Positions 2,712-62,870 of a DNA stretch of 64,000 bases are shown piece by piece. The DNA lies in assembly GCA_041747555.1 (NCBI GenBank), contig JBGTEY010000007.1:11426-75425 (forward strand), given 5' to 3'. The DNA comes from Patescibacteria group bacterium. GTDB taxonomy: Bacteria; Patescibacteriota; Microgenomatia; UBA1400; PJMF01. How positions within the stretch are numbered: the stretch's first letter is position 1; every line of letters begins with the position of its first letter. The position numbers and the translations under genes are program-made. The notes under the pieces are model-generated. The model made no database searches. It saw nothing but the letters and a program-made list of their open reading frames with translations, and was not told the DNA's origin.

Positions 2712-3191
2712 TCAAATTCGCTCGATAATCTCATCGAGTGATCCACCGAGCCATTTGGAGGAAATATTCATATTTTCGTCAAGAACTACGAAGGTATGTT
2801 GATTGACAATTTCATATTGCTGGACGAGTTCAGCTTCTGTGTCGTAATCAACTTTAAAAATTTTGACGTTCTCTGGAATTGAGTCCATTCTGGAAACAAT
2901 GTCTTTTTCGGCAGCGCGGCATGTTGAGCACCATTCAGCGTGGAAGAATAATACCGTTGTGTTGCCCATTGCTACGGATGATTCAACTTCGGACTGACTG
3001 TAATCTTGGAATGTGCCGGGGGTTTTAACTACTGACGGTGTGTCACTAACTGTGTCTAGTGGGGCCACAGGTGTCGTGTCAGCAGCGCTTGGCTCCTGAT
3101 TTTGTGAGGCCTGGGGTGTACACCCGGCGAGCAATACACTTGAGATTAGAGCAGTGGTAAAAAATAGTATTTTGTGGTGATAGTGTTTCAT
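2712..3191 (-). CDS. Thioredoxin-fold thiol-disulfide oxidoreductase lipoprotein (TlpA/ResA-like)
   Basis: Lipoprotein signal MKHYHHKILFFTTALISSVLLAGC. WCSTC active-site motif (WCxxC). Confidence 0.7.
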   Translation of the reverse strand: MKHYHHKILFFTTALISSVLLAGCTPQASQNQEPSAADTTPVAPLDTVSDTPSVVKTPGTFQDYSQSEVESSVAMGNTTVLFFHAEWCSTCRAAEKDIVSRMDSIPENVKIFKVDYDTEAELVQQYEIVNQHTFVVLDENMNISSKWLGGSLDEIIERI

Positions 3192-3205
3192 ATCGCAACT
3201 ATACC

Positions 3206-3958
3206 TTATTTTCTTGATAAAACCAAAAAACGAACCTTACCAAATGAGTCCTGCAACTGCGTTGCGGACCATTGAGCTGCGTGTTCGGTTCTCAAAATAT
3301 CATCGACCGTATGAATTTCATTAATTTCAAAAAAAAGTGTTGTATCCTGATGCGTGAACGGCATGACTGTAGTAAGGAGTTGGTGAAAGAGCTCTGTACC
3401 GTTTTGCCCCCCGTCGAGTGCTAGATGTGGCTCATGGTTACGCACAGAGTCAGGGAGCGTAGTCATTTCTGATGAAGTCACATATGGCAGATTGGCACTG
3501 ATAATATCAAAGGTTTCACCGGCTGGGATATTTTCAAGTACATTGCTATGAATGAATTGAATCGAATAGTCTTTAGATAGTAGTGCAGCTCTATTTTGAC
3601 GCGCTACATCAAGTGCAGCGGGCGAAATATCAGTGAGCATTACAGTAATCTGATGTGCAGGAAAGCGTCGAGCCACAGAAATGCCGATTGCCCCAGTTCC
3701 GGTACCGACATCAAGGAGTGAAGCTGGTTCAGTGCCAAATTTTTCTTCAATGTGGGTGCAGATATAATCGACGAGTTCTTCAGTTTCAATCCGTGGAATG
3801 AGCGTGTCCGGTGTGCACATAAATTCGCTGTCACAAAAGGTAACGCGCCCTGTAATGTACTCAACCGGCGTGGTATCAGCGTCATGAAACTTGGTTGGAT
3901 TAATGCCAGCTCGAGCGAGTTGGGTAAGTTCGTATGGTGAAAAGCGTCGCTGTGGCAT
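3206..3958 (-). CDS. prmC: HemK/PrmC-family class I SAM-dependent methyltransferase. Probably release-factor glutamine N5-methyltransferase.
   Basis: SAM motif LLDVGTGTGAIGIS. Catalytic FDIISANLPYV is an NPPY-like motif in the HemK position. 250 aa. Confidence 0.5.
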   Translation of the reverse strand: MPQRRFSPYELTQLARAGINPTKFHDADTTPVEYITGRVTFCDSEFMCTPDTLIPRIETEELVDYICTHIEEKFGTEPASLLDVGTGTGAIGISVARRFPAHQITVMLTDISPAALDVARQNRAALLSKDYSIQFIHSNVLENIPAGETFDIISANLPYVTSSEMTTLPDSVRNHEPHLALDGGQNGTELFHQLLTTVMPFTHQDTTLFFEINEIHTVDDILRTEHAAQWSATQLQDSFGKVRFLVLSRK

Positions 3959-4107: not shown

Positions 4108-4848
4108 ATGCCACAACTCATATTTGATGGCTCACAAGTTACCATACTCATCGCTTTCTTAGGCGGAATTTTGACGTTTTTTGCCTCGTGTCTTTTGCCG
4201 TTGGTACCTACATACCTGGCATATTTAAGCGGTGTACAGCTCAAAAGTGATTCGAAAGGTCGTAGGACTGTGTTTCGGGCTGCATTGTTTTTTGTGTTTG
4301 GGTTCATTTCTGTCTTCATCCTACTTGGCTTGGCAGCCTATCAATTTGCTGCGATTGTCGCTCCGTATCGAGAGATAGTGAGTCGAATGAGTGGGGTTCT
4401 TTTTATTGCAATGGGGCTCTTTATGCTCGGCGTGTTCAAGCACTTTGGTCAGACTGAGAGAAAATTACATCTGGAAAACTTATTTCAAAATCACGTCCAC
4501 ATCCATGCACTACTCACTGGTGTCGCATTTGGTTTTGGGTGGAGTCCTTGTATTGGGCCGGTATTAGCAGTCATTCTGTTTTGGTCGGCTGCACAAGAAA
4601 CTATGTTGATGGGCACGCTACTTTTACTCGTGTATGGTTTTGGTCTAGGTTTGCCATTTTTGTTAGCCGCGCTTGGTCTAGAAAAGGTTTTAAAAAAGAT
4701 TACACAGAACCCGTCAATTGCGCGAAATCTCAATCTTTTCTCAGCAGTATTGATTATCCTTGCAGGATTGGCATTGTTGACTGGAACACTCGACGCAATC
4801 AGCTTTTGGGTGTTATCACGCTTTAACCTGAGCGCACTAGCAGCATGA
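4108..4848 (+). CDS. ccdA: Cytochrome c-type biogenesis/thiol-disulfide transporter CcdA (DsbD transmembrane-domain family)
   Basis: Polytopic membrane protein with the two conserved Cys motifs FASCLLPLVPTYLAYLSG and GFGWSPCIGPVLAVIL. Start moved to ATG 4108, which follows a TACAAT at 4091-4096 and is near-leaderless. Confidence 0.75.
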   Translation: MPQLIFDGSQVTILIAFLGGILTFFASCLLPLVPTYLAYLSGVQLKSDSKGRRTVFRAALFFVFGFISVFILLGLAAYQFAAIVAPYREIVSRMSGVLFIAMGLFMLGVFKHFGQTERKLHLENLFQNHVHIHALLTGVAFGFGWSPCIGPVLAVILFWSAAQETMLMGTLLLLVYGFGLGLPFLLAALGLEKVLKKITQNPSIARNLNLFSAVLIILAGLALLTGTLDAISFWVLSRFNLSALAA

Positions 4849-4925
4849 GTGATGCCAGCGGTCTTATTTGCTCCGAGTGTGTTACAATTTCAGCATACAA
4901 ACGGTGTTTTTAGTAAGAAAAAAAT

Positions 4926-5357
4926 ATGTCTACGCTCCAATTAAAACTCCAAGATGATATGAAAACCGCACTGCGAGCACATGATTCTGTGCGGCTCGGT
5001 GTTATTCGATTCGCACTTTCTTTGATAAAAAATGCAGAAATCGATGGCGGCCCACAATCCGACGATCAAATAGTCTCACTCCTCTCAAAAGAAGTTAAAA
5101 AAATGTCTGAGGCTACCGAGCAGTTTGCGGTTGCGGGTCGAGATGAATTAGTGAAAGAAGAATTGGTTAAAATCGATATTCTCAAATCCTATCTCCCAGA
5201 AAAAATGGACGAATCAGAATTGAGAGCAATCGTAACCACCGTACGAGAAAGCATGCCTGATGCACAGATTGGTCAAATAATCGGTGCAGTAATGAAGCAA
5301 GTTGGCAGTAAAGCCGATGGTGGAATGGTATCTAAATTGGTACGAGAACTACTTTAA
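4926..5357 (+). CDS. yqeY: GatB/YqeY-domain protein
   Basis: 143 aa. Typical YqeY pattern: LKDDMKTALRAHD..RLGVIRFALSLIKNAEID ... QIGQIIGAVMKQVGSKADGGMVSKLVRELL. Confidence 0.8.
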   Translation: MSTLQLKLQDDMKTALRAHDSVRLGVIRFALSLIKNAEIDGGPQSDDQIVSLLSKEVKKMSEATEQFAVAGRDELVKEELVKIDILKSYLPEKMDESELRAIVTTVRESMPDAQIGQIIGAVMKQVGSKADGGMVSKLVRELL

Positions 5358-35112: not shown

Positions 35113-35880
35113 ATGGCTCGTCCGAGTCAACCAACATCAGAATTTGATGAAAAAGTAATCCAGATCTCCCGTGTTTCAAAGAAAACCAAGGGTGGTAATA
35201 AGATTGGCTTTTCGGTACTCATGGTTGTGGGCGACAAAAAGGGTAACGTTGGCGTTGGGCTTGGAAAAGCCGGCGACGTGTTATCTGCCATCAAAAAAGG
35301 CGTCAAAAAAGCAAAGAAGAAAATGATTAAGGTTCCATTAAATGGAACAACAATCCCATTCCCAATCACTGCCAAAAAAGGTGCAGGCAGAGTCATGCTC
35401 AAGCCCGCTCCCAAAGGTTCTGGAGTTATTGCAGGTGGACCAGTTCGTGCAGTGGTAGAAGCTGCAGGCGTTAGAGACATTTCTAGCAAAATTCTTGGTT
35501 CAGAAAATCAAGCATCAAGTGTGTACGCAACTTTTGAAGCATTGCACCAAATTGAAAGAATCGTAACGCTTAAAGGTATCTCGCTCAAATCAATCGCAGA
35601 AACAGAAGCAGAAGAAGAAAAACGACTCGAAGCGATGCAAGAGAAGCACAAAAAGAGAGCTGAAGGTAAAGATCAAGACGCCAAGGACGCAAAGCAAGTC
35701 AAAGACGTCAAAACAAAAGACAGCAAAAAAACCAGTAAACAGGGAGCTGAAAAAAAGACTGCAAAAAATGAGTCAAAACCAGCACCGAAAGCTGAAAAGA
35801 AAACAGAAGCAAAAGTACCATCAGAAAAACCAGCAGCAAAAACTCCAGCCAAAAAAGAAACGACCAAAAAAGCAAAGTAA
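35113..35880 (+). CDS. rpsE: 30S ribosomal protein S5, with a ~95-aa Lys/Asp/Ala-rich C-terminal extension
   Basis: S5 core VIQISRVSKKTKGGNKIGFSVLMVVGDKKGNVGVGLGKA. The tail is AEEEKRLEAMQEKHKKRAEGKDQDAKDAKQVKDVKTKDSKK... rplO begins 6 nt later, so there is no rpmD. Confidence 0.95.
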   Translation: MARPSQPTSEFDEKVIQISRVSKKTKGGNKIGFSVLMVVGDKKGNVGVGLGKAGDVLSAIKKGVKKAKKKMIKVPLNGTTIPFPITAKKGAGRVMLKPAPKGSGVIAGGPVRAVVEAAGVRDISSKILGSENQASSVYATFEALHQIERIVTLKGISLKSIAETEAEEEKRLEAMQEKHKKRAEGKDQDAKDAKQVKDVKTKDSKKTSKQGAEKKTAKNESKPAPKAEKKTEAKVPSEKPAAKTPAKKETTKKAK

Positions 35881-38211: not shown

Positions 38212-38241
38212 AAAAGCGAGCTGATTCTCAGCTCGCTTTTT
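38212..38241 (+). terminator. Rho-independent terminator after adk
   Basis: AAAAGCGAGCTGAttctcAGCTCGCTTTTT. Confidence 0.65.
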
Positions 38242-38275: not shown

Positions 38276-39016
38276 ATGGACACACAAAAAATTCCCAGCA
38301 TGATTGAAGGCGGTAAGCGACTCGCCAAGGTCAAGCGTGCGTTAGTTGATTTTACCAAACCAGGTGTCACATTTGAAGAAATCGAAGCGCTCGCACAAAA
38401 AAGCATTCGAAAAACGGGTGACGTGCCTAGTTTTTCAACTGTGAAAGGCTACGACTGGGCAACGTGCATCATGATTAATGAAGAGCTCTGCCATGGCATT
38501 CCTGTGGATGGTGTTATTGAAAAAGGAGACATTGTTACCATTGATGTGGGCCTTATTCATAATGGGTACCATCTCGATACCACTACAACATTTGCTGCAG
38601 GTGATGTTGCACCAGATGTGCTTGATTTTCTAGAGAGAGGGAGAAAGATTCTTGATGCATCGATCGCCCGCGCTACGGTTGGTAATTCCGTATATGGGAT
38701 TAGTCATGAGATGGAGTCTGGGCTAAAAAAATACGGGTATGGAGTTGTGAGGCAGCTCACAGGGCACGGTATCGGCAAAGAACTGCATATGTATCCTTCA
38801 ATTCCATGTTTTGCACAACGGGCAGACAAGCGAATTATCTTAGAAGAAGGTCAAACATTAGCAATAGAGGTCATGTATACGATGGGAAGCCCGGTTGTTG
38901 TTGAAGCAGAAGATGGATGGACATTTGTGACAGATGATGACTCGTTGTCTGCGATGTTTGAGGAGACAGTGTTGGTATCCAAGGATGGGCCAAAAATTCT
39001 AACTGCAGCTGAGTAA
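38276..39016 (+). CDS. map: Type I methionine aminopeptidase
   Basis: Metal ligands sit in the conserved order. The residues are D (DVGLIHNGYHLD), D, H (HGIGKELH), E (LAIEVMYT) and E (FEETVLVSKDG). The ORF-track start at 38240 is TTG, so ATG 38276 is preferred. Confidence 0.9.
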   Translation: MDTQKIPSMIEGGKRLAKVKRALVDFTKPGVTFEEIEALAQKSIRKTGDVPSFSTVKGYDWATCIMINEELCHGIPVDGVIEKGDIVTIDVGLIHNGYHLDTTTTFAAGDVAPDVLDFLERGRKILDASIARATVGNSVYGISHEMESGLKKYGYGVVRQLTGHGIGKELHMYPSIPCFAQRADKRIILEEGQTLAIEVMYTMGSPVVVEAEDGWTFVTDDDSLSAMFEETVLVSKDGPKILTAAE

Positions 39017-39071
39017 TCGGATTATGTTAGAAATCTGACGTTCATGGTATCCTTGGTCTAATAAGGATTAT

Positions 39072-39752
39072 ATGGCGGGTGGAGAAAAAAAATCAGAGTA
39101 TGTACCGGGAACGCGACTCGCTGAAAAAACTCAGAAGAATGTTGACAAAATACTCAGAAAGATGCTCAATCATATTGGAGCACAAAATTTTGCAAAACTT
39201 GATCCTGCCGCTACACCTAAGGAAGTTGAATACTATGTTTCATACCATTTGAAGACCTTTGATATTGAAGCTTTGCGCGACTCATATTCACCTGGCGAAA
39301 TCATGCATGCTTTGCGGCAAATAGGCCAACGTCTGCAGGAAGAAGCGCTAGAAAACGAGCGTAAGATATCAAAAGCTAGTAGGGTAGTTAGCACTCTCAA
39401 ATCGTACTTTCCTTGGGCTGAAACATCTGTTGAGAAAGCAAAAAAAGAGTTTGAGTTAAAGGAGATACAGAGAAAATTACTTGAGCGCGTGCTACCTCCA
39501 GGGGCAGACGAATCTATGAAATCAATTGTGTTATTTGTGCATGCACTACTCGCAGATGAGGACTTTCCGAACCAGATCGACAATTGGAAGAGTGGTGGTA
39601 AAGGGTTCAGCGGCTATGCTGCGAAGGTTTACTTTGATCTTTTTAAGCGCTCACGCGACCCAGTGTTTTCTACAGAAATACTTGGACGCATTACCAAAGT
39701 CGCCATGGATTTGTACGAAGATCAAACTCAACAACAGAGACGTAGACGCTAA
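39072..39752 (+). CDS. Hypothetical soluble 226-aa protein inserted between map and infA. Basic C-terminus ending QQQRRRR.
   Basis: Clean ORF on the same strand as the flanking genes, with SD AAGGA 6 nt upstream. No TM helix and no recognisable motif. Confidence 0.55.
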   Translation: MAGGEKKSEYVPGTRLAEKTQKNVDKILRKMLNHIGAQNFAKLDPAATPKEVEYYVSYHLKTFDIEALRDSYSPGEIMHALRQIGQRLQEEALENERKISKASRVVSTLKSYFPWAETSVEKAKKEFELKEIQRKLLERVLPPGADESMKSIVLFVHALLADEDFPNQIDNWKSGGKGFSGYAAKVYFDLFKRSRDPVFSTEILGRITKVAMDLYEDQTQQQRRRR

Positions 39753-39804
39753 TTCACCCCCGTGACATCCCCTGACTAATTTGGTATAATAAAGAGTTCT
39801 AAAT

Positions 39805-40134
39805 ATGGGAAAAGTACAAGATCATAAACGAGCAGCCAAGGCCAAACGCCAAGTTGATCAAACCGACAAGAAGTCTAAGCAGACTGACCGGTTTGCAATT
39901 GAGGGTGTGGTTGAAGAATGCTTGCCAAATACTATGTTTCGAGTCAAGGTAACTGACTCTGAGGTGCCTCAGATGGTTGACCGAATTTTGCTCGGGACAT
40001 TGGTTGGAAAAATGAGATTGTTTCGAATTCGGGTCATGCCTGGCGATGTAGTCAAGGGCTATGTCACAAAATATGACCTCGATAAATGTAAAATAACCTA
40101 TAGATCAACGAAAAATAGCTCGCAGTCAATTTAA
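39805..40134 (+). CDS. infA: Translation initiation factor IF-1, with a ~30-aa Lys-rich N-terminal extension
   Basis: Core EGVVEECLPNTMFRVKVTDSEVPQMVDRILLGTLVGKMRLFRIRVMPGDVVKGYVTKYDLDKCKITYR is the S1-like IF-1 fold. 109 aa against about 72 typical. Confidence 0.85.
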   Translation: MGKVQDHKRAAKAKRQVDQTDKKSKQTDRFAIEGVVEECLPNTMFRVKVTDSEVPQMVDRILLGTLVGKMRLFRIRVMPGDVVKGYVTKYDLDKCKITYRSTKNSSQSI

Positions 40135-40196
40135 TACTTTTCAATTAGCTGTTTCTGAGGTATAGTCGTACCCTATTCGTTTGACTTGAGGAAATA

Positions 40197-42843: not shown

Positions 42844-43446
42844 ATGAGACACAGAATAGCAGGTAAAAAATTTAATCGAGACACGAACGCGCGCAAGAAT
42901 TTGCTCAGCGGGTTGGTGAGAAGTCTTGTTGAGCACGGTAAAATCGTGACTACACAAGCGAAAGCCAAAGAAGTGAAGCGTCTCACAGATAAACTCGTCT
43001 CAATTGCACAGCGGGATGACAATGTCGCTGCACGCAGACTCCTCCACCGTTTCTTTGGAAAGAGAGACGTGGTAAATACCTTGGTTGATCGAATTGCACC
43101 GCTCTTTACCGACAGAGTTTCTGGTTTTACTACCATTAAATCTGCGGGAGTCAGACGTGGTGACAACACCGCACTGTTTCAGCTCAGCTTTATAAAAATG
43201 CCAGAAGTAACTGGAGTTCTGAAAGCACCGGCCAGCGTCAAAGAAGCAGCCGCTGCATCGAGAGCAACTGGTGCCAAGAAATCTTCAAAGGCTGCGCCAA
43301 AAGCAACCAAAAAAGATTCGGTAGAAAAAACTGCTCCAGCAGCAAAAAAAGTCGAAGCCAAACCAAAAAAAGCAGCTCCAAAAAAGACTGCACCAAAACC
43401 AGCAGCAAAGAAGAAATCGGCACCCAAAAAGGAAGCTAAGAAGTAA
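42844..43446 (+). CDS. rplQ: 50S ribosomal protein L17, with an Ala/Lys-rich histone-H1-like C-terminal extension
   Basis: MRHRIAGKKFNRDTNARKNL core. Tail AAKKVEAKPKKAAPKKTAPKPAAKKKSAPKKEAKK. Confidence 0.95.
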   Translation: MRHRIAGKKFNRDTNARKNLLSGLVRSLVEHGKIVTTQAKAKEVKRLTDKLVSIAQRDDNVAARRLLHRFFGKRDVVNTLVDRIAPLFTDRVSGFTTIKSAGVRRGDNTALFQLSFIKMPEVTGVLKAPASVKEAAAASRATGAKKSSKAAPKATKKDSVEKTAPAAKKVEAKPKKAAPKKTAPKPAAKKKSAPKKEAKK

Positions 43447-50926: not shown

Positions 50927-53900
50927 TTATCCCAACACTTTGCGCACATTCTGTTGCACTTCACGAGATCGAGAGAGGTGGGTGCGTGGCAGGGTTACAG
51001 GTTGTTGTCTGGTAGCCACAATCAACCATCCAAAAATAATTGGCAATACCAACAAACCTATTAGTTCCAAGTACTGCGGCCAAAAAAGCATTGTAATAGT
51101 TACTGTTTGCGCGCCATCATCAGCTCCTGGTGAAATCACCCAAGCATTCTGCCAACCATTGGCAACTGTATGAGGGTACGGTCGCCAGAATTGAAATCCG
51201 GAAAATGCAATCCAGCCAGCATCATACGATTGAGAGAGTAGTAGTGTGGTTTCTGACACGGGATCTATTTGAACGTCGGCTGAATATCTAGTTGGAGTAA
51301 TTTTCTGGGAAGTGTTTACCACTGCCGTTGTCGTGTGCTCGACAGTTGCTGCTGGCTCAAGTCTAATCCCAGACAAGTACTCTAGAGTAACTGGGAGTGA
51401 GTAGCTTTCTGCTACGAGGAGCGTATTCACTGAATCCTCACCCGCTACAGAACGATTTTCAACCGATGCCCAATATGAACCGGCATACATTCCTCCCCAA
51501 TTGGGTATAGTAAACACTTCATCGAAATCACCCCCACTACCCAAATGTTCTAGCTCAAGTCGCTGATTATTATTATTTTCGAGATATAACTTAAGACTCC
51601 TACCCACGTCGTTGTACCCGATCATGCGAATAATTTGCGTACCCGGCAATTCGACGGTCGAGCCGAGACATACTGCACCGTTATCTTCTGAAGATAAAAC
51701 AAGTGCAGACCGAATCCGATCTTTGCCAACAGAAATATTTCCCCGTTGATACAAATCACAATTAAGCGGTGTAATTTGTGCAAAGTTAGCCAAAATATTA
51801 TTTCTTTGAAGGGGCGCAAATAGTAATTCAAGTGATCCAGTTCCTGAAGTATCAAGTGCAAACCGCTGCTCACTGATGAGGTCATTCCATATTGTGCCTG
51901 CAAAATCTTGCGAAAGAATTCCGCTTACTGGTAACTCAACCATCACAGAAACGGACTCACCGACTTGCAGTCCTTTTAGTTGCTTAGTTTCAGACTGATC
52001 TGTAGTAACCGTAAATTGTGTATCACCTATGGTGATCTGTGCAGCAGAGATTGGTTCCGCAGTCTGTATTTCAAGACTAGGAAGGTGGCCAACGGGATAG
52101 GTTTTTTCTCCTTGCTTCACTAGGGCAAGCGGGGAGAAGGTGATTTCTATTCCAGAAGCAGTCACGGCTGCAGTTGCCACAGGATAGACCATCGTCCCAG
52201 CTTCAAGTGCAGGTACCACGAGATCGTCAGATACAGATATTTCACTCGATGCATTGAGAAGTAAATCACCCGATTTATCGAAGGTGTGTGCTACCCGATG
52301 TTCGGTAATTTTTGAAAACGGAAATGTGCTAGCTTTTTCGGAAAAAAAAGGCTGGCGATATTCCCCAAGAGTAGCAGAAACAGGATCAAATCGAGTAAAC
52401 TCGGTATCAGATTCAACTACCGTCACGGTAGTAGGAATTGAAACTGCACCTTGTTCAGAGCTTGGTAGCTGATAGACAGTCAATAAATCCTCAGACCAAA
52501 CAGGCCGTGCTCCAATCTCTGCCAGGAGTGTCTTGCTCCCAGAAATCCACACTACCGATTGCGACCGCCGTTGCGGGGCAATGATACTCTCATCAAGCAC
52601 AAAATAATCAATATCATATTGATGAGCAGTAGTTCTAAATCCTTCGGCATCTAGCTCGTACAAATTGGTTGAAAGTTGTTTGTACAGTGTTTCATTGGTA
52701 GCGTTCCATCGGTCGAAATCTCGAACGACCGTCGCTTGTGGTAACCCAAACCAAATAAATCCTGGGCCTTCATATCCCCAAGACATATAATCCCAGCCAT
52801 GGAGCGTTTGCATTGGTAACTGCACGACCCGACTTTCCTCAGGTTGAGTTTTCATGAACTCAAAGAGCGTGCTGTAGCTCTGCGGAATGTCATTATGAAG
52901 TTTGGGCGATATCAATTCTCCAGACAGCAGCGGGTATCCAAAGTACATAAGCATACCTACAAAAATACCCGCAACCAGCGAACTACCAGGCACAGCATCA
53001 GATTTTTTCTCAATTTTTTTAATCCCTGTGAGTAAGAATGCAGTGGATACACTTAGCAATAGCGCTGTCGCAATCATAAATACCAGTGAAAATTTTGTAA
53101 ACGGAAACCGCAAGCCTTCCTCAAAAAAGCTGTTATTAGTTCTTAAAAAATTAAAAATGCTCGTAAATGGTGGGTTTTCATTGATCAACATAAATACAGA
53201 AAATACCCAAGCTGGGACAATCAGAAACAATGCACGCCATTTTTTTAACAATACTATTGAAAAAGAGAGGAGCACCGTCAATGCCACGAGCAATCCAATA
53301 GCACTTACCCCAAATCTTCCCAGATGCGTAATCCAAGGCTCGAGTAGTGGACCAAACGCATGTTCTTGGTTGTCATACACCGACCAATTAAACAAAAAAT
53401 TTCTCAACAGCGGTAAATGCTCAAAAGTGCCAAACGCTTTATTCTGCAAAAATGCCTCTGTACTAAATAATTCATTAATATGTGCATTTTTGGGATTTGC
53501 AGAAGCCCCAGAAAATAAAAAATAAAAATTAGGCAGTAACCAAAATAAATTTGTCATCACCAACACAATTCCAACTTGTGTAGCACTCCAAAAACGTTTC
53601 AAAGATTTCGTCAATATTGCCCGAAACACCACCGTCATTCCCAACGCCCCTGCAAACGCAAACCACAGCGTACTCGCATAGGCCATAGGCGCTGCCAAAA
53701 GACTCACTACCGCAAAATACAACAGCGTCCGCTTGTCGCGATCCTCCAAGTATTTCAGTGCATAATAAAACAACCACCCAATCGCCGCATACTGCACCGC
53801 AAACATTTCAAACACCACATAAAAATGCTGGACCGCTCCCAGATTAAAAATATACCAAACCCCAGCAACGAGCGCCGACAATTCGGCAATTTTTCTAGAA

Positions 53901-54283
53901 GTCTTCGCATAGTTTTGCAACGCAAAACGAACCAATTGAAACACCCCAATCGGCCCGAGCACCAGACAAATCAATACATATATTTTTTTTACCGTATAAA
54001 TCGGTGCAATAAGAGACAAAAGCCACAAGATAGCCACCCGCGGTAAATCACTCATATGCGCATGAGCCGCCACCGCTCCAAGACCTTGATCCTCGCGCCA
54101 GACTCCAAACAAAAGTCGCTTGAAGTTCAGTGCAAAATCAAATTCTGGATGCAGCGTATCCCAGCCCGTCAGCCAAGTAGAACCATCAAAATTACGCACT
54201 GCCACAATAAACGCAATAAAAAACAACACCATCAACGGTATCTCACCCTTTAGAAAACGGAAAAATCTGGACAGGACTTTCAT
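50927..54283 (-). CDS. Giant polytopic membrane protein, 1118 aa, with a GT-C-fold-like architecture. It has an N-terminal multi-TM block, a large extracytoplasmic domain and a C-terminal TM helix. Putative polyprenyl-phosphate-sugar-dependent glycosyltransferase (YfhO/PMT-like).
   Basis: At least 12 predicted TM helices in the first ~560 aa, about 500 aa of soluble domain, and a final TM helix LIGLLVLPIIFGWLIVA. Start ATGA-overlaps the upstream BNR gene. It sits directly downstream of a GT2 polyprenyl-phosphate glycosyltransferase. Confidence 0.45.
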   Translation of the reverse strand: MKVLSRFFRFLKGEIPLMVLFFIAFIVAVRNFDGSTWLTGWDTLHPEFDFALNFKRLLFGVWREDQGLGAVAAHAHMSDLPRVAILWLLSLIAPIYTVKKIYVLICLVLGPIGVFQLVRFALQNYAKTSRKIAELSALVAGVWYIFNLGAVQHFYVVFEMFAVQYAAIGWLFYYALKYLEDRDKRTLLYFAVVSLLAAPMAYASTLWFAFAGALGMTVVFRAILTKSLKRFWSATQVGIVLVMTNLFWLLPNFYFLFSGASANPKNAHINELFSTEAFLQNKAFGTFEHLPLLRNFLFNWSVYDNQEHAFGPLLEPWITHLGRFGVSAIGLLVALTVLLSFSIVLLKKWRALFLIVPAWVFSVFMLINENPPFTSIFNFLRTNNSFFEEGLRFPFTKFSLVFMIATALLLSVSTAFLLTGIKKIEKKSDAVPGSSLVAGIFVGMLMYFGYPLLSGELISPKLHNDIPQSYSTLFEFMKTQPEESRVVQLPMQTLHGWDYMSWGYEGPGFIWFGLPQATVVRDFDRWNATNETLYKQLSTNLYELDAEGFRTTAHQYDIDYFVLDESIIAPQRRSQSVVWISGSKTLLAEIGARPVWSEDLLTVYQLPSSEQGAVSIPTTVTVVESDTEFTRFDPVSATLGEYRQPFFSEKASTFPFSKITEHRVAHTFDKSGDLLLNASSEISVSDDLVVPALEAGTMVYPVATAAVTASGIEITFSPLALVKQGEKTYPVGHLPSLEIQTAEPISAAQITIGDTQFTVTTDQSETKQLKGLQVGESVSVMVELPVSGILSQDFAGTIWNDLISEQRFALDTSGTGSLELLFAPLQRNNILANFAQITPLNCDLYQRGNISVGKDRIRSALVLSSEDNGAVCLGSTVELPGTQIIRMIGYNDVGRSLKLYLENNNNQRLELEHLGSGGDFDEVFTIPNWGGMYAGSYWASVENRSVAGEDSVNTLLVAESYSLPVTLEYLSGIRLEPAATVEHTTTAVVNTSQKITPTRYSADVQIDPVSETTLLLSQSYDAGWIAFSGFQFWRPYPHTVANGWQNAWVISPGADDGAQTVTITMLFWPQYLELIGLLVLPIIFGWLIVATRQQPVTLPRTHLSRSREVQQNVRKVLG

Positions 54284-56672: not shown

Positions 56673-57842
56673 CTAGGGGGTAGGGCGTTCGTAATCGACT
56701 TCTCCGTGAATCAGGACTTCGATACCTGACGTCACGAAAAACTGATTATTTACACCGAGACAACCTTCAATAAAGCTGCAGTTGCCTCCCGCATTCGCGA
56801 GTTCCGTTGGGTTTAACTCACTGACACCATCTGTCATGTTCCACGTTGCGTGGGCCATGACGGCAGTAATTGCCTCGGGGAGGTGATCCCCATGGAAATA
56901 ATTGCCAGTGACAATGAAAGTGTTATCCAGGGTACCCGTAAATTCGGCCGAAGCGTAGCCCACATTTACGATGAGCAACGCGCAACCCAAGGGTTGATCT
57001 TCAGTAGTTACACAAGATCCCAGCCCGTCTAAGGACCAAGACCCTGTTACGAGCGTGTAATGCTCGCCCGCAACTACCAAATCACACTGGTCATTAGCCG
57101 CCCCACAGAATTGAGTTTGGTCCTGTGCGTAGTACATACCCCATTCGGCCGGAAAATCGGCTTCGGGGTTGTCTACGTCAGGGAACTCAACCCACAGGGG
57201 GGGATCCAGTGTGGGGAAGGCTGCCCAAGGGATTGAGCCTTGTCCGAGCATCTGGAGGGTTGCACCCTCGAAATACTCGACATACCAGCCGTTCACATCT
57301 GCTACCTGAGCGGCAGCAGGTAAACTGCTAGTTGTAACGTTTGTGTCGGTCGTGGTCGTGACTTTTACGCCATTCTCAACCTTCACCTCAGTTTCCAGAC
57401 CTCTCGCTTCCTCTACTTGATCCCGATACTCCTCAAGGGAGCTGGGAATACCACCGAGAATGCCGTTTGAGCTTTCAGTGGTTTCGGTCGAGGGTTGTGC
57501 GGGGGTTAGCGCAAGCGCCACTTGGTTTGAAACATCCTCTAAGAATTCCGTGTCCGTAATGATACGGGCGACGATCTCCTCAGTGTCAGCATCTTCACCG
57601 TCGGCACCTGCAACGCCTTGTGTACCGCGAGGGCCCTGAGGGCCTTGTGGGCCGGTTGTCGGCTCGATTTTCTCAAGCTCGGCAACCCTTTGGTACAAAT
57701 CATTAACTGCTACACGGTTTTCCGTGATTGCAGGGTTGGCCTCTGCCTGGTTTTCATTCCAGAACCACAGACCAACCATTGCCAGTACCAAGAAAAAAGA
57801 GAGAAGGGCGAAGCTAATCGCCAGGTTTACTTTTGCGTTCAT
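56673..57842 (-). CDS. Membrane-anchored protein with a short collagen-like (Gly-X-Y)7 stalk and a ~250-aa Cys-containing C-terminal globular domain
   Basis: Start at MNAKVNLAISFALLSFFLVLAMVGLWFW, with GGAGG 8 nt upstream. GPQGPQGPRGTQGVAGADGED. Confidence 0.55.
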   Translation of the reverse strand: MNAKVNLAISFALLSFFLVLAMVGLWFWNENQAEANPAITENRVAVNDLYQRVAELEKIEPTTGPQGPQGPRGTQGVAGADGEDADTEEIVARIITDTEFLEDVSNQVALALTPAQPSTETTESSNGILGGIPSSLEEYRDQVEEARGLETEVKVENGVKVTTTTDTNVTTSSLPAAAQVADVNGWYVEYFEGATLQMLGQGSIPWAAFPTLDPPLWVEFPDVDNPEADFPAEWGMYYAQDQTQFCGAANDQCDLVVAGEHYTLVTGSWSLDGLGSCVTTEDQPLGCALLIVNVGYASAEFTGTLDNTFIVTGNYFHGDHLPEAITAVMAHATWNMTDGVSELNPTELANAGGNCSFIEGCLGVNNQFFVTSGIEVLIHGEVDYERPTP

Positions 57843-58405
57843 TTTTTTGCCTCCTTGACAATTGATGAACATGGTCGCCGAGATCATGGTGGCGACCAAA
57901 GTTGACGTGCCGGATACCATCCGGCCATTTTTTCCTTCCGCGAAAACCGCGGATCGTCTAGCATCAAAGCGGGGCGGAAGGGGTACCAGACGTGCGATCG
58001 TTTGATCACACACCTAATGCCCCTTCCGCGAGGAGAACATGAACGTGCATTTACCCTTTTGTAATAAAAAACACTATAAATACATTCATCACTCGTAACT
58101 TAATACGCGTGATTCCCTGTAGCCTGTTAAAGATCGACTGTTTCGAACCGAAGTTCAATTCAGTCAATTTGTTTGTTTAAGCCGAAGCTTAAACGCTGCT
58201 CTGTCCCGTTTCGCCAAACATCGGCGCGATGCCGAGCTGGCAAGTGAGCTGAGCAGGGCAGTGGTTGTATCGCTCTTCAAAACTTACAACCACTGCTCTA
58301 CGCAGCTTGGTGTCGCTCTAAAATTCATGAAATGGGGTCGGGGTTTGAAGAGCGACTGACAGTTTTTTATTTAATGTACGTACTCATTGAGTACCACTAT
58401 GAATA

Positions 58406-58687: not shown

Positions 58688-59308
58688 TTAATCGCTTATC
58701 GTGATCTCGAAGGGGAAGCTTTGGCTACCAAGTGTCAGTAGTCCGTCAAAGCTTTTGGTACCTCCCGGGGTGTAGGAATACCAGTGACTCGTTTGTGCTG
58801 AGCCATTAGTAAATTCCACATCTGTTTCCGTTCCGTCTCCAAAAGAAACATTTCCCCACCCATTGGTGGTTGGGGAGCAGTTAAAATTGATGACGATATG
58901 GTTAACAGCTTGACCCTGAGAAGTGACGGTTGTGCAGTTGTTTATTGGGGGGGAGTCGTCAATCACAACTTTGTAGTGAAACGTGCTGTTTCCTACAGTA
59001 AAGAATGTGTTGTACTCCATGATACCACCAGGCGTGTAGCTGTAGTCATGGCTTGTCGTTCCGGGAGGAACGCTAAGCCCGGTGCCAGTACCGTCTCCAA
59101 AATCAAGGAAACCTTCAACATCCCCATCGCACTCGACGGTGAAATTGAAGCTGTTGATAGTCCCTTGTTTGACGACAGCAGTTGAGGTACAGCTGAGCCC
59201 ACCTACTGTTTCAGCTTGGGCTGTTTGAGTTCGAGTTGCGCCTGCAAGCAGTGCAATTAAACCCAAAAGTAGCACTAAAAATGCGATTTTTTTCACTATT
59301 TGTTTCAT
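58688..59308 (-). CDS. Secreted protein with two tandem PKD-like domains
   Basis: Signal peptide MKQIVKKIAFLVLLLGLIALLAGA. Repeat 1 FLDFGDGTGTGLSVPPGTTSHDYSYTPGGIMEYNTFFTV. Repeat 2 VSFGDGTETDVEFTNGSAQTSHWYSYTPGGTKSFDGLLTL. Both fit the PKD pattern FGDG ... H.Y ... G.Y. Confidence 0.65.
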   Translation of the reverse strand: MKQIVKKIAFLVLLLGLIALLAGATRTQTAQAETVGGLSCTSTAVVKQGTINSFNFTVECDGDVEGFLDFGDGTGTGLSVPPGTTSHDYSYTPGGIMEYNTFFTVGNSTFHYKVVIDDSPPINNCTTVTSQGQAVNHIVINFNCSPTTNGWGNVSFGDGTETDVEFTNGSAQTSHWYSYTPGGTKSFDGLLTLGSQSFPFEITISD

Positions 59309-60420: not shown

Positions 60421-60464
60421 ATGGCCGCCCCCCTTGGGGAGCGGCCGTAGCTCTATTTTTTTTC
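60421..60464 (-). terminator. Bidirectional terminator, near-identical to the copy at 62926..62966
   Basis: AAAAAAATGGCCGCCCCCCttggGGAGCGGCCgtagctctaTTTTTTTT. Confidence 0.7.
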
Positions 60465-60725
60465 ACCTCTTCTCAGACTAAGAAACGCCACGCCAACAGA
60501 TATTACGATTGGCGTCAATTTTTGGACAATTTCCAGCCAGCCGCCGTCGGCGGCGGGTGAAACCTGTAAAATTGTGTTTTCAATGTTGATCATTGAAAAC
60601 CATAAAGATGTGGCAATTGCTACAAACCACCATTTAGAACTATTTTGTCGCAGGCCAATCTGTATGGTGATATAGACTAATGCCAGTGTACTAATTGCTG
60701 TCAAAAAATAAACTAAAAAAATCAT
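60453..60725 (-). CDS. Small 3-TM membrane protein, 90 aa, paralog of 62963..63235
   Basis: GGAGG then ATG at 60725. MIFLVYFLTAISTLALVY ... KWWFVAIATSLWF. The ORF-track N-extension to 60887 was rejected because it runs through the conserved leader. Confidence 0.5.
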   Translation of the reverse strand: MIFLVYFLTAISTLALVYITIQIGLRQNSSKWWFVAIATSLWFSMINIENTILQVSPAADGGWLEIVQKLTPIVISVGVAFLSLRRGEKK

Positions 60726-60990
60726 TTGTTTCCTCCATGAGAGTTTTATTCCCTTTCCTCGTGAAAGGGCCACCAAACACGATGATGCAGATACATCATG
60801 TGCAGCGTCCCTTTCTCGAGATGGAGGCGTGGTTTTATGAGCCTTAGTGAAAAGGTGTTTTAAAGAGCTAAATCGATAGATGCTCATTTATATGTAACAG
60901 TATCTGATGCGATTTCAGGCTGTTCCACACAAACTACATCAATTCTATTATGACATTAAACGGCCAAGTGTCAATACTATAGGACTATAA
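60726..60990 (-). repeat. Conserved promoter-plus-leader repeat, copy 1. It holds TTGACA-N16-CATAAT and a ~215-nt structured 5' UTR.
   Basis: About 85% identical to 63236..63492. Anti-SD CCUCCAU at plus 60821-60827 can pair with the SD region at 60732-60738. Alternative GAAAGGG/CCCUUUC pairings are possible. Confidence 0.55.
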
Positions 60991-61016: not shown

Positions 61017-62870
61017 TCAGGCCGCTACTGCCCCATACCCAATCGTCGACTCTAAACACCGCATCCAGTTGCAGTGCGGGTACGAAATTATTTTTTTATA
61101 AAATCCCCAATTTTCTGCAGCTTTAAAGAGTTTTGCGGTCTGCGAGTCATTTTCCAGCTCAAAACGGTGTACTCCAGAGGAAATCACTGCACTTGGTTCT
61201 TCAAGTAAGTGCATAAATAATTTAGCAAATGTCTTGAAATCATCAACGGGGTGCGAGCCCACAACAGGCACATACACCTCATTAAGAAACGTAAAGAAAC
61301 TATCTATTACCTGTTGTTCTGGAGCAAAGGTAAGCGTCGACTTATGGAGCGGCCGGTGACCCGTTAGCTCCCAGGCGGGGGAGGCTTCTCGCTTTGAAAG
61401 TCCAATAAATGATGCAAACGCGAGATGATTGGGGTTATTTTGATCAAATTGAGCTTGAGTGCGAGTCTCGATTGCTTCACGACCCAAATCATACACTGAT
61501 CGCGCATATATCATGCCTGTCCTTAACTGAAATTGCGTAGAAAACTCAAGTTGCGTCACGGTTGCTTCTGTTTTTCTGGTTATGTGGAGTAGTTCGTCGC
61601 CTTGTTCTTTAAATTTTTTTGCAGTTTGTAGGAGTGAGGCTGCTTGTTCGTCGCCATTTTTGGCCTTTTGATCAAGTAATTTTATAAATTTAGGATTACT
61701 GAATTGATCGAGCACAAAATGTTTGATGCCTTCTGGTGAATTGTATGTTTCTATTGTTTTTTGGAGCGCTAATTCTTCAATAAGTTCGCGCTTAGAACTG
61801 TATGAACTTGCGCCTTGTTGATAACTTATTTCTGTCACGTGTGACCAATATGCCGTTGTTCTTACAAACTGATATCCATCGACGCGTGTTTCTGAATCGG
61901 TCAGAAAATTCCTCAAGAATTCTGGATTTTGAAGGGAAGTAAGCAACGATTGATACTGTGTAGACTCGAGATCTTTTGCAATCTGCTCAGATTTAGCATT
62001 GAAGCGATAAAACTCGACTAAAAGATCAGGCATAGTGGTGAGAAATTCAGGAGCTTGCGCATGGATTTGCTTGAAGAGTGTACCCCAGCCTTGGGAGTTC
62101 ATATCTCTAAAATATGCAATAGCTTTTACAACTTCTATAAGTTCAATATCATGAATACCAATGGATTGGGGACCTTCGGCTCGGGGAAGGGAGTAATAAA
62201 CACCGTCTGAGATATGCCTGGTAGATGCCAGGAGTTCTGCAACTGCTTTTTCACCAATGAGAATTGTAGCCACACCCGTGCCAACTCGAGCAGTTTCTGC
62301 AACGACGTCAAGATTGTATGCCTTGATGGAGTTGGTATTTGCTCCGGAAATCTGGAATGCCATGAGGGCTGCTTCTGGTGGGATATCGGTCAGCGATGCA
62401 TATTGAAGAAAAAGTTCCATGAAAACCTGTAAATATTCTTGAAACTCTTGATCTTGCTCTGTTTGCGTTTCAGTTTGAGGGTAAAAATAGAGCGTAGCGA
62501 GGCGCGCAACTCTAGGGAGGAGGACAGCGATAGCTTTTTTTCTTTGTTCTGAAAGTGTTGTATTTTCTTCTAGTAGGCTAAGAAAATGGTGTTTCGCTTC
62601 TTCACTTATGATTTTAGATGGATCTAAGGGGGTGTATGAGTCTTTTTTAAGTCGTAAACGGCGTTCATTCATGGATTCGAGTACAGGGTCGATTTCAGCA
62701 TGATTAATCCCTAGCCGAGCGGTCGCGTAGGCAGCAGCACCTATTGCAGCGCGGCCAAACAGACCTCGTCTACTCACCTTAATTAGGTTGAGTGCGCGAC
62801 TAATGGGACCAAGTTGTTTATCTGGATGATCTGATGGTGGGGAGGAACTTGTTTCTACTGATGAATTCAT
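61017..62870 (-). CDS. Hypothetical 617-aa exported protein with a twin-arginine (Tat) signal
   Basis: VSRRGLFGRAAIGAAAYATARLG at aa 30-52. No other recognisable motifs. Confidence 0.5.
   Translation of the reverse strand: MNSSVETSSSPPSDHPDKQLGPISRALNLIKVSRRGLFGRAAIGAAAYATARLGINHAEIDPVLESMNERRLRLKKDSYTPLDPSKIISEEAKHHFLSLLEENTTLSEQRKKAIAVLLPRVARLATLYFYPQTETQTEQDQEFQEYLQVFMELFLQYASLTDIPPEAALMAFQISGANTNSIKAYNLDVVAETARVGTGVATILIGEKAVAELLASTRHISDGVYYSLPRAEGPQSIGIHDIELIEVVKAIAYFRDMNSQGWGTLFKQIHAQAPEFLTTMPDLLVEFYRFNAKSEQIAKDLESTQYQSLLTSLQNPEFLRNFLTDSETRVDGYQFVRTTAYWSHVTEISYQQGASSYSSKRELIEELALQKTIETYNSPEGIKHFVLDQFSNPKFIKLLDQKAKNGDEQAASLLQTAKKFKEQGDELLHITRKTEATVTQLEFSTQFQLRTGMIYARSVYDLGREAIETRTQAQFDQNNPNHLAFASFIGLSKREASPAWELTGHRPLHKSTLTFAPEQQVIDSFFTFLNEVYVPVVGSHPVDDFKTFAKLFMHLLEEPSAVISSGVHRFELENDSQTAKLFKAAENWGFYKKIISYPHCNWMRCLESTIGYGAVAA

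Follow-up and report, generated by a model that had tools for sequence, protein, structure and literature searches.

An orphan gene with one distant homologue between map and infA in the ribosomal gene cluster of a Patescibacteria genome

The ribosomal gene cluster in the window (the whole 64,000-nt stretch of DNA analysed) carries between map and infA a 226-codon gene, here called ORF X, which on sequence grounds is an orphan (taxonomically restricted) gene with one homologue, located in the closest genome. The reading that we favour, at somewhat better than even chances, is that ORF X encodes a lineage-specific, weakly constrained accessory protein, possibly the product of a young gene, placed at the tail of the map transcript and tolerated at a permissive junction. 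The kind of gene is familiar, a taxonomically restricted and domain-less gene in a CPR genome; unusual are its location and the measurable identity contrast with its neighbours.

Gene order and coding potential of the map-infA interval

The gene order in the window is secY-adk-map-X-infA-rpmJ-rpsM, and the public gene calls for the same contig give the string L2...L15-SecY-Adk-Map-X-IF-1-S13. A model's earlier reading of the same DNA (the original prediction) had placed a same-strand ORF of 226 aa between map and infA, which was borne out by the ORF coordinates and by the Pfam matches of the neighbours:

38300..39016, + strand: map, type I methionyl aminopeptidase (Peptidase_M24, Pfam PF00557, E 1e-35)
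39017..39071, + strand: map-ORF X spacer, 55 nt, not alignable with the 66-nt spacer of the homologous locus L050 (see below)
39072..39752, + strand: ORF X, intact, 226 codons from ATG 39072 to TAA 39752
39805..40134, + strand: infA, encoding IF-1 of 109 aa (Pfam PF01176, E 7e-14), with the L36 and S13 genes downstream

The public record calls map as 238 aa, which sets its start at 38300. The mechanical start of the map ORF, TTG 38240, falls within a terminator-like hairpin, and the true start is probably ATG 38276 or ATG 38300. This hairpin (38212-38241, AAAAGCGAGCTGA-TTC-TCAGCTCGCTTTTT; -22.8 kcal/mol in a 41-nt context) sits between the adk stop (38198) and the true map start and was not listed by the consensus terminator scan; in the closest relative the adk-map gap is only 8 nt and contains no hairpin.

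The deduced ORF X protein has a theoretical pI of 9.27, is hydrophilic (GRAVY -0.67) and Cys-free, and ends in ...QTQQQRRRR. As originally proposed, it has no transmembrane helix, the 19-residue Kyte-Doolittle maximum being 0.88, with no hydrophobic segment. Its composition is native, with a GC content of 0.427 vs 0.42-0.43 in the flanks and a GC3 like that of the neighbours. In-frame codon usage gives a log-likelihood of +0.216 per codon, inside the range of well-identified genes of the window (0.17-0.47), while the other five frames are all negative and spurious antisense ORFs in the window score about 0. By this host-like codon usage, together with the two orthologues both open at 226 codons and the codon-position gradient described below, ORF X is a genuine protein-coding gene and not a chance ORF. 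Nor is it a frameshifted fragment of a known gene, which the original prediction had named as an outcome that would speak against it. Internal duplication within ORF X was not significant (z 1.8), and neither repeats or paralogues nor any tRNA or Rfam element were found in the window.

A single homologue in the same slot of the closest genome

Searches of Pfam, NCBIfam, PHROGs, PADLOC and PDB sequences with ORF X gave no significant match, and the absence of a recognisable domain noted earlier was thus upheld in Pfam, NCBIfam and PHROGs; such a state is common in the window, where five of ten tested non-ribosomal ORFs other than ORF X also lack a Pfam domain. Only ORF X itself was returned when 5.8 billion clusters were searched with a word index and when 1.84 billion representatives were scanned exhaustively with phmmer. 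The PHROG matches were noise only (E >= 0.08), tblastn vs phages and plasmids yielded no match at E <= 1, and no homologue was found in JGI metagenome contigs, IMG/VR, GenBank phages or PLSDB plasmids; the phage or mobile-gene homology that the original prediction regarded as contrary evidence was therefore not encountered in these collections.

The one relative was found by searching with the neighbouring Map as query instead of ORF X. In GCA_049289655.1, a 'Microgenomates group bacterium' MAG and the closest genome available (Map 83% identical), the same map-infA slot (locus L050) harbours an unannotated 226-aa ORF, P0122, so that the search for same-slot homologues suggested at the outset succeeded in the nearest relative. 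ORF X and P0122 share 25% identity and are, as judged by alignment, clearly homologous: BLASTP aligned them collinearly across 209 residues (E 1e-8), the Smith-Waterman score was 112 vs 33 +/- 5.3 for shuffled sequences (z 14.8, with 0/2000 shuffles reaching it), and the sense frames were the top-scoring pair among the 36 frame pairs. A profile built from the two members retrieved only these two in the word-indexed search, no third family member was found among about 15 billion proteins, and exact-sequence look-ups of the window's L36 and IF-1 led to the same two genomes only. As far as these searches reach, ORF X and P0122 make up a new family without known relatives; literature searches on unknown genes in CPR ribosomal operons and on CPR ribosome structure yielded nothing relevant.

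Both proteins are 226 aa long, Cys-free and basic (pI 9.27 and 9.24 for ORF X and P0122, respectively), and this conserved basic pI and exact length hint at a defined function, possibly nucleic-acid binding. The basic QQQRRRR tail emphasised in the original prediction is present in ORF X and missing from P0122. Conservation is concentrated in residues 16-40 and 151-185 and is highest in the following segment:

39522..39581, + strand: best-conserved patch of ORF X, residues 151-170, I-x-x-FV-x-AL-x-ADEDF, 10/20 identical to P0122

Residues W172, S174 and G181-Y182-A183 are invariant too (up to nt 39620), which gives the pair the conserved C-terminal motif I-x-x-FV-x-AL-x-ADEDF-x6-W-x-S-x6-GYA.

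Evolutionary rate of ORF X relative to its neighbours

Comparison of the window with GCA_049289655.1 gave the following protein identities:

SecY (C-terminal part): 98.5%
Adk: 93%
Map: 83%
ORF X: 25%
IF-1: 95%
L36: 100%
S13: 93%
S11: 96%
S4: 93%
RpoA: 93%
L17: 74%
L13: 83%
S9: 93%
ABC-2 membrane protein: 91%

The neighbouring proteins are thus 74-100% identical, mostly above 90%, vs 25% for ORF X. Its dN is 1.04 vs 0.00-0.12 in the neighbours, a non-synonymous rate at least 9 times that of the fastest neighbour and more than 20 times that of most of them, and the slow evolution of the adjacent ribosomal genes is not shared by ORF X. The limits of this divergence are sharp at the DNA level: as far as the map stop codon 75-90% of positions are identical, through the map-X spacer and the entire ORF X identity drops to background level (about 35-45%), and right after the ORF X stop it is 98% again (from 39773 onward). 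Of the faster neighbours, L17 (200 aa, 42844-43446) owes its 74% identity mostly to its C-terminal tail; like S5 (255 aa, 35113-35880), it carries a long tail rich in Lys, Ala and Glu.

A non-functional ORF X, either a decaying remnant or a chance open frame in spacer DNA, appears very improbable. It would agree with the lack of homologues beyond the pair, with a non-synonymous rate near neutral and with the low confidence of the AlphaFold models (pLDDT 50-61). However, a random frame at the composition of ORF X contains about 6% stop codons, or one per about 17 codons, and would stay open over 226 codons with a probability of about 1e-6. Both copies are open and of equal length, whereas the silent sites of the neighbours are near saturation (4-fold identity only 41-82%, dS about 0.3-2). 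Identity between ORF X and P0122 is graded by codon position (0.50 at position 2, 0.38 at position 1 and 0.30 at position 3), which, like the host-like codon usage, fits translation. Since both copies are open and their homology is detectable at z 14.8, whereas neutral sequence would be unrecognisable at dS about 1.5, the frame has probably been kept by selection.

The omega of ORF X is roughly 0.5-0.7, a value not properly measurable from two sequences with saturated dS. Weak constraint alone would be enough to explain the divergence, and neither diversifying selection nor cassette exchange is required; two sequences with saturated dS do not tell relaxed constraint apart from strong diversifying selection or from the exchange of ORF X for a distant allele.

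The map-infA slot in other relatives

The slot was examined at about 55 loci, drawn from GTDB species representatives, JGI metagenomes and Logan/ENA assemblies, in which Map is 43-69% identical to that of the window and IF-1 up to 80%. In about 50 relatives, i.e. almost all, map is directly followed by infA, with spacers of about 10-140 nt. ORF X, present in two genomes and missing from about 50 relatives with Map 54-69% and IF-1 70-80% identical, thus lacks wide conservation across the lineage that shares its ribosome. The exceptions to the short spacer are:

L051/L052 (next-closest lineage, Map 69%): about 400 nt, with a 56-aa ORF without similarity to ORF X
L020: 737-1145, 409 nt, no convincing ORF
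L023 (a more distant relative): 2897-3322, an unrelated 141-aa ORF
L012: secDF after map

In L051 the slot spans 4736-5136, and read-through of an in-frame TAG would extend the 56-aa ORF to about 104 codons; it may be an independent insert or a decaying gene. The L020 spacer begins with a terminator-like hairpin (AAAAAACCACCTGCAGGTGGTTTT) and has on its minus strand a tRNA-like 3' half (GCGGGTTCAGTTCCCGCCACCTCCA), although no gene is recognised there by ARAGORN or Rfam; the spacer may be what an integration event left behind. The 141-aa ORF of L023 has a sub-threshold match (E 0.002) to LPD3, a domain associated with large polyvalent proteins and typical of mobile elements. No Rfam element was found in the four related loci scanned (L020, L023, L050 and L051). 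Judging from these loci, extra DNA enters the slot now and then, and ORF X is restricted to a single genus-level clade. Sporadic, unrelated slot content in relatives, as in L023, L051, L020 and L012, is what the original prediction had listed as evidence against a ribosomal role. The outgroup slots hold spacers of 20-140 nt or unrelated 400-nt inserts, and at this divergence (dS saturated) any ancestral non-coding sequence behind a de novo origin of ORF X would be unrecognisable. Several of the MAGs (L002, L004, L006, L008 and L011-L013) have Patescibacteria-like ribosomal clusters in records titled 'Pseudomonadales' or 'Gammaproteobacteria', which looks like a taxonomy-labelling artefact.

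The predicted infA promoter and the probable operon junction

The short interval between ORF X and infA contains a predicted promoter that matches the consensus at 11/12 positions plus the TG extension:

39762-39790, + strand: predicted infA promoter, GTGACA-17-TGGTATAAT, extended -10

In all relatives examined a TGnTAnAAT extended -10 box lies shortly upstream of infA, usually only a few bases from the map stop; the -35 hexamer either coincides with the codons for the conserved (V/I)LT motif at the C terminus of Map or lies just past the stop. Between the window and L050, the -10 box and the 5' UTR are identical, with few changes upstream. By this conservation, infA-rpmJ-rpsM... is predicted to be a transcription unit of its own in this clade, and ORF X, placed upstream of the promoter, would lie at the junction of two transcription units and not embedded with infA. 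The original prediction had ORF X co-transcribed with translation factors; the conserved promoter in front of infA weakens this argument of guilt by association. No terminator-like site was found after ORF X, and read-through into infA, and with it co-transcription, is therefore possible, though not needed for infA expression.

Two further features of this region were noted. IF-1 carries a clade-specific N-terminal extension (39805-39910) of about 35 residues, rich in Lys and Gln (MGKVQDHKRAAKAKRQVDQTDKKSKQTDRF...); the extended form is conserved at 70-95% over its full length in the nearer relatives (Map at least 53% identical), and the more distant ones have the usual IF-1 of about 72-82 aa. 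The infA-rpmJ spacer (40133-40192), 60 nt of non-coding DNA, is 100% identical to that of the relative, while the flanking 4-fold sites are only 41-82% identical, which suggests a constrained leader or promoter; it holds a promoter-like TTTTCA-17-TATAGT and the rpmJ Shine-Dalgarno (SD) sequence, and has no Rfam match.

A hairpin over the Shine-Dalgarno sequence of ORF X

The spacer upstream of ORF X contains the inverted repeat on which the original prediction had based a proposal of translational control:

39049..39068, + strand: hairpin AUCCUUG (39049-39055) / UAAGGAU (39062-39068), 6-nt loop

The predicted hairpin covers the AAGGA SD sequence of ORF X (39063-39067), and an outer CAUG/UAUG stem pairs the start codon too. 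The pairing itself was thus found as described, with -6.4 kcal/mol for the hairpin alone and -12.3 kcal/mol for the 41-nt 5' context, which ranks third of the 70 gene starts in the window. The 84 nt from 39017 to 39100 fold at -18.7 kcal/mol (z -2.0), and 4/200 shuffles were as stable. The hairpin is real but only slightly beyond chance, given that one or two such cases are expected among 70 genes. It is not shared by L050, whose 66-nt spacer is AT-rich, without SD and unstructured (-2.3 kcal/mol); there, a TATAAT box precedes the ATG by 14 nt. In the genome of the window, translation of ORF X may be damped by the hairpin, but the comparison with L050 lends no support to the regulatory element originally proposed.

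Structure prediction and comparison with known proteins

Structure prediction, likewise suggested at the outset, yielded all-helical AF2 models for ORF X with pLDDT values of 50 and 61 for one and two input sequences, respectively, and an all-helical fold can be proposed only tentatively at this confidence. Foldseek comparison of the model with PDB and BFVD gave no fold match (best E 0.27, TM at most 0.3), the best E in the BFVD fold search being 0.8.

Several identities were considered and rejected. ORF X is similar in length to map and is followed in frame, past its stop, by a map-like 'V-T-x-x-x-stop' relic, which had raised the idea of a diverged tandem duplicate of map. BLASTP vs Map gave E 1.4, PF00557 was not matched, and hhalign of the two-member profile vs 20 Map sequences returned a probability of 0.2%. 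The in-frame relation of the relic does not hold in L050, and no duplication of the map 3' end is needed because in the outgroup L002 the promoter already lies wholly downstream of the map stop. A recent horizontal insertion was set aside: composition and codon usage are native, and the gene was already present before the divergence of two genomes whose synonymous sites are now near saturation. The match to DUF445 (PF04286; 14.7 bits, E 0.03, residues 21-174) is far below the gathering score of 33.8, and P0122 has none; DUF445 proteins are membrane proteins of about 370-400 aa, unlike ORF X with its lack of any hydrophobic segment.

A partial parallel is presumably offered by ybzG of Bacillus subtilis, which we take to be a small KOW-type RNA-binding protein gene annotated between map and infA in Firmicutes. 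Both ybzG and ORF X are additional genes placed, on the strand of their neighbours, between map and infA in a ribosomal cluster. The ybzG product has about 70-75 aa and a KOW/S4-like beta fold, whereas ORF X has 226 aa, is predicted to be helical and has no KOW or other Pfam match. The Bacillus locus (L014) showed no match to ORF X above noise, and no paper on ybzG in connection with infA turned up in a literature search.

The last candidate was subunit A of PD-lambda-5, suggested by a weak match of P0122 to the PADLOC profile PD-Lambda-5_A (PDLC04000; 18.5 bits, E 2e-4, profile positions 207-319 of 428). PD-lambda-5 has been described (PMC9519451) as compacted RM+Abi, with a methyltransferase. 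This anti-phage, RM+Abi-like system of E. coli prophages comprises two genes, whereas the neighbours of ORF X are map and infA; the ORF X family protein is only half as long as the profile. ORF X itself lacks a PADLOC match, a methyltransferase domain and a partner gene.

The same observations bear on the possibility, which we regard as unlikely, that ORF X was captured from a mobile element, phage or defence/conflict system, settled at a permissive junction and evolves fast in an arms race. Unrelated DNA does sometimes occupy the slot, including the L023 ORF with its weak LPD3 match, P0122 has its weak PADLOC match, and extreme divergence is typical of conflict genes. Against this, ORF X has no PADLOC, PHROG, phage, plasmid, viral-contig or viral-fold match, its composition and codon usage are native, and no integrase, repeat, tRNA or partner gene accompanies it; moreover, the methyltransferase domain of PD-lambda-5 (PMC9519451) is absent here, and the part of P0122 that matches is the least conserved one in the family.

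Discussion

The original prediction had assigned ORF X a ribosome- or translation-associated role. Such a clade-specific protein might act with Map on nascent chains, with IF-1 at initiation, or as an extra ribosomal protein, and the location has arguments to offer: ORF X lies on the same strand within the ribosomal cluster, tightly spaced and with no terminator before infA, its two members agree in length and basic pI (9.3 and 9.2), it has been retained since the divergence of the two genomes, and in this genome a hairpin masks its SD as in autoregulated ribosomal-protein operons. A role of this kind is nevertheless distinctly unlikely and was not supported by the comparative data. About 50 relatives have this ribosome and the extended IF-1 but lack ORF X, whose dN of 1.04 compares with 0.12 in the fastest neighbour and exceeds that of most neighbours more than 20-fold; confinement to two genomes and 25% identity beside conserved neighbours are unlike a component that docks on conserved translation machinery. 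ORF X also lies upstream of a conserved, self-contained infA promoter, its hairpin, SD and basic tail are not conserved in the homologue, and elsewhere unrelated inserts use the same slot.

Under the accessory-protein reading that we favour, ORF X would be a genus-restricted gene of a two-member family, lying between the map stop and the self-contained infA promoter. Its product would be soluble, basic (pI 9.3), Cys-free and probably all-helical. The reading frame would have been kept open by selection in both genomes, with weak amino-acid constraint except in an N-terminal helix (about residues 16-40) and in the C-terminal patch FVxALxADEDF...W.S...GYA. Expression may come from the map transcript, with ORF X as its last cistron, or else from a weak separate promoter, and in this genome the hairpin that masks SD and AUG may damp initiation. 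The gene would encode a non-core accessory protein, possibly from a young gene, that persists because the junction tolerates extra DNA, and would not be part of the translation apparatus.

It is improbable, though of interest, that the pair represents a new-born family, arisen de novo or otherwise without ancestry in one Microgenomates-type genus, in the spacer that separates map from the infA promoter, and recruited to a function tied to its neighbours (for instance modulation of Map or IF-1, or rRNA binding by its basic helices); if so, it would be a rare, datable gene birth inside the ribosomal superoperon. If the accessory-protein reading is right, ORF X is mainly a cautionary example: a place in a conserved ribosomal gene string does not by itself signal a translation function where a conserved promoter within the string turns the site into an operon junction with tolerance for extra DNA.

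ORF X resembles other CPR/Patescibacteria orphan genes in its narrow clade, absence of domains, fast evolution, native composition and low structure-prediction confidence. What sets it apart from typical CPR orphans is its place in a gene string that is among the most conserved of bacteria, together with a positional orthologue, which makes the rate contrast with its neighbours measurable. It does not open a long-standing question; it is a cleanly bounded case of extreme rate heterogeneity and a candidate young gene in a CPR genome.

Elsewhere in the window, five minus-strand ORFs are without a Pfam match at E <= 0.001, namely 50927-54283 (1117 aa), 56673-58013 (445 aa), 58688-59308 (205 aa), 60453-60887 (143 aa) and 61017-62870 (616 aa). 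Next to them lie genes for a Lamin-tail-domain protein and a GT2 glycosyltransferase, and together they may make up a gene cluster for the cell surface or envelope.
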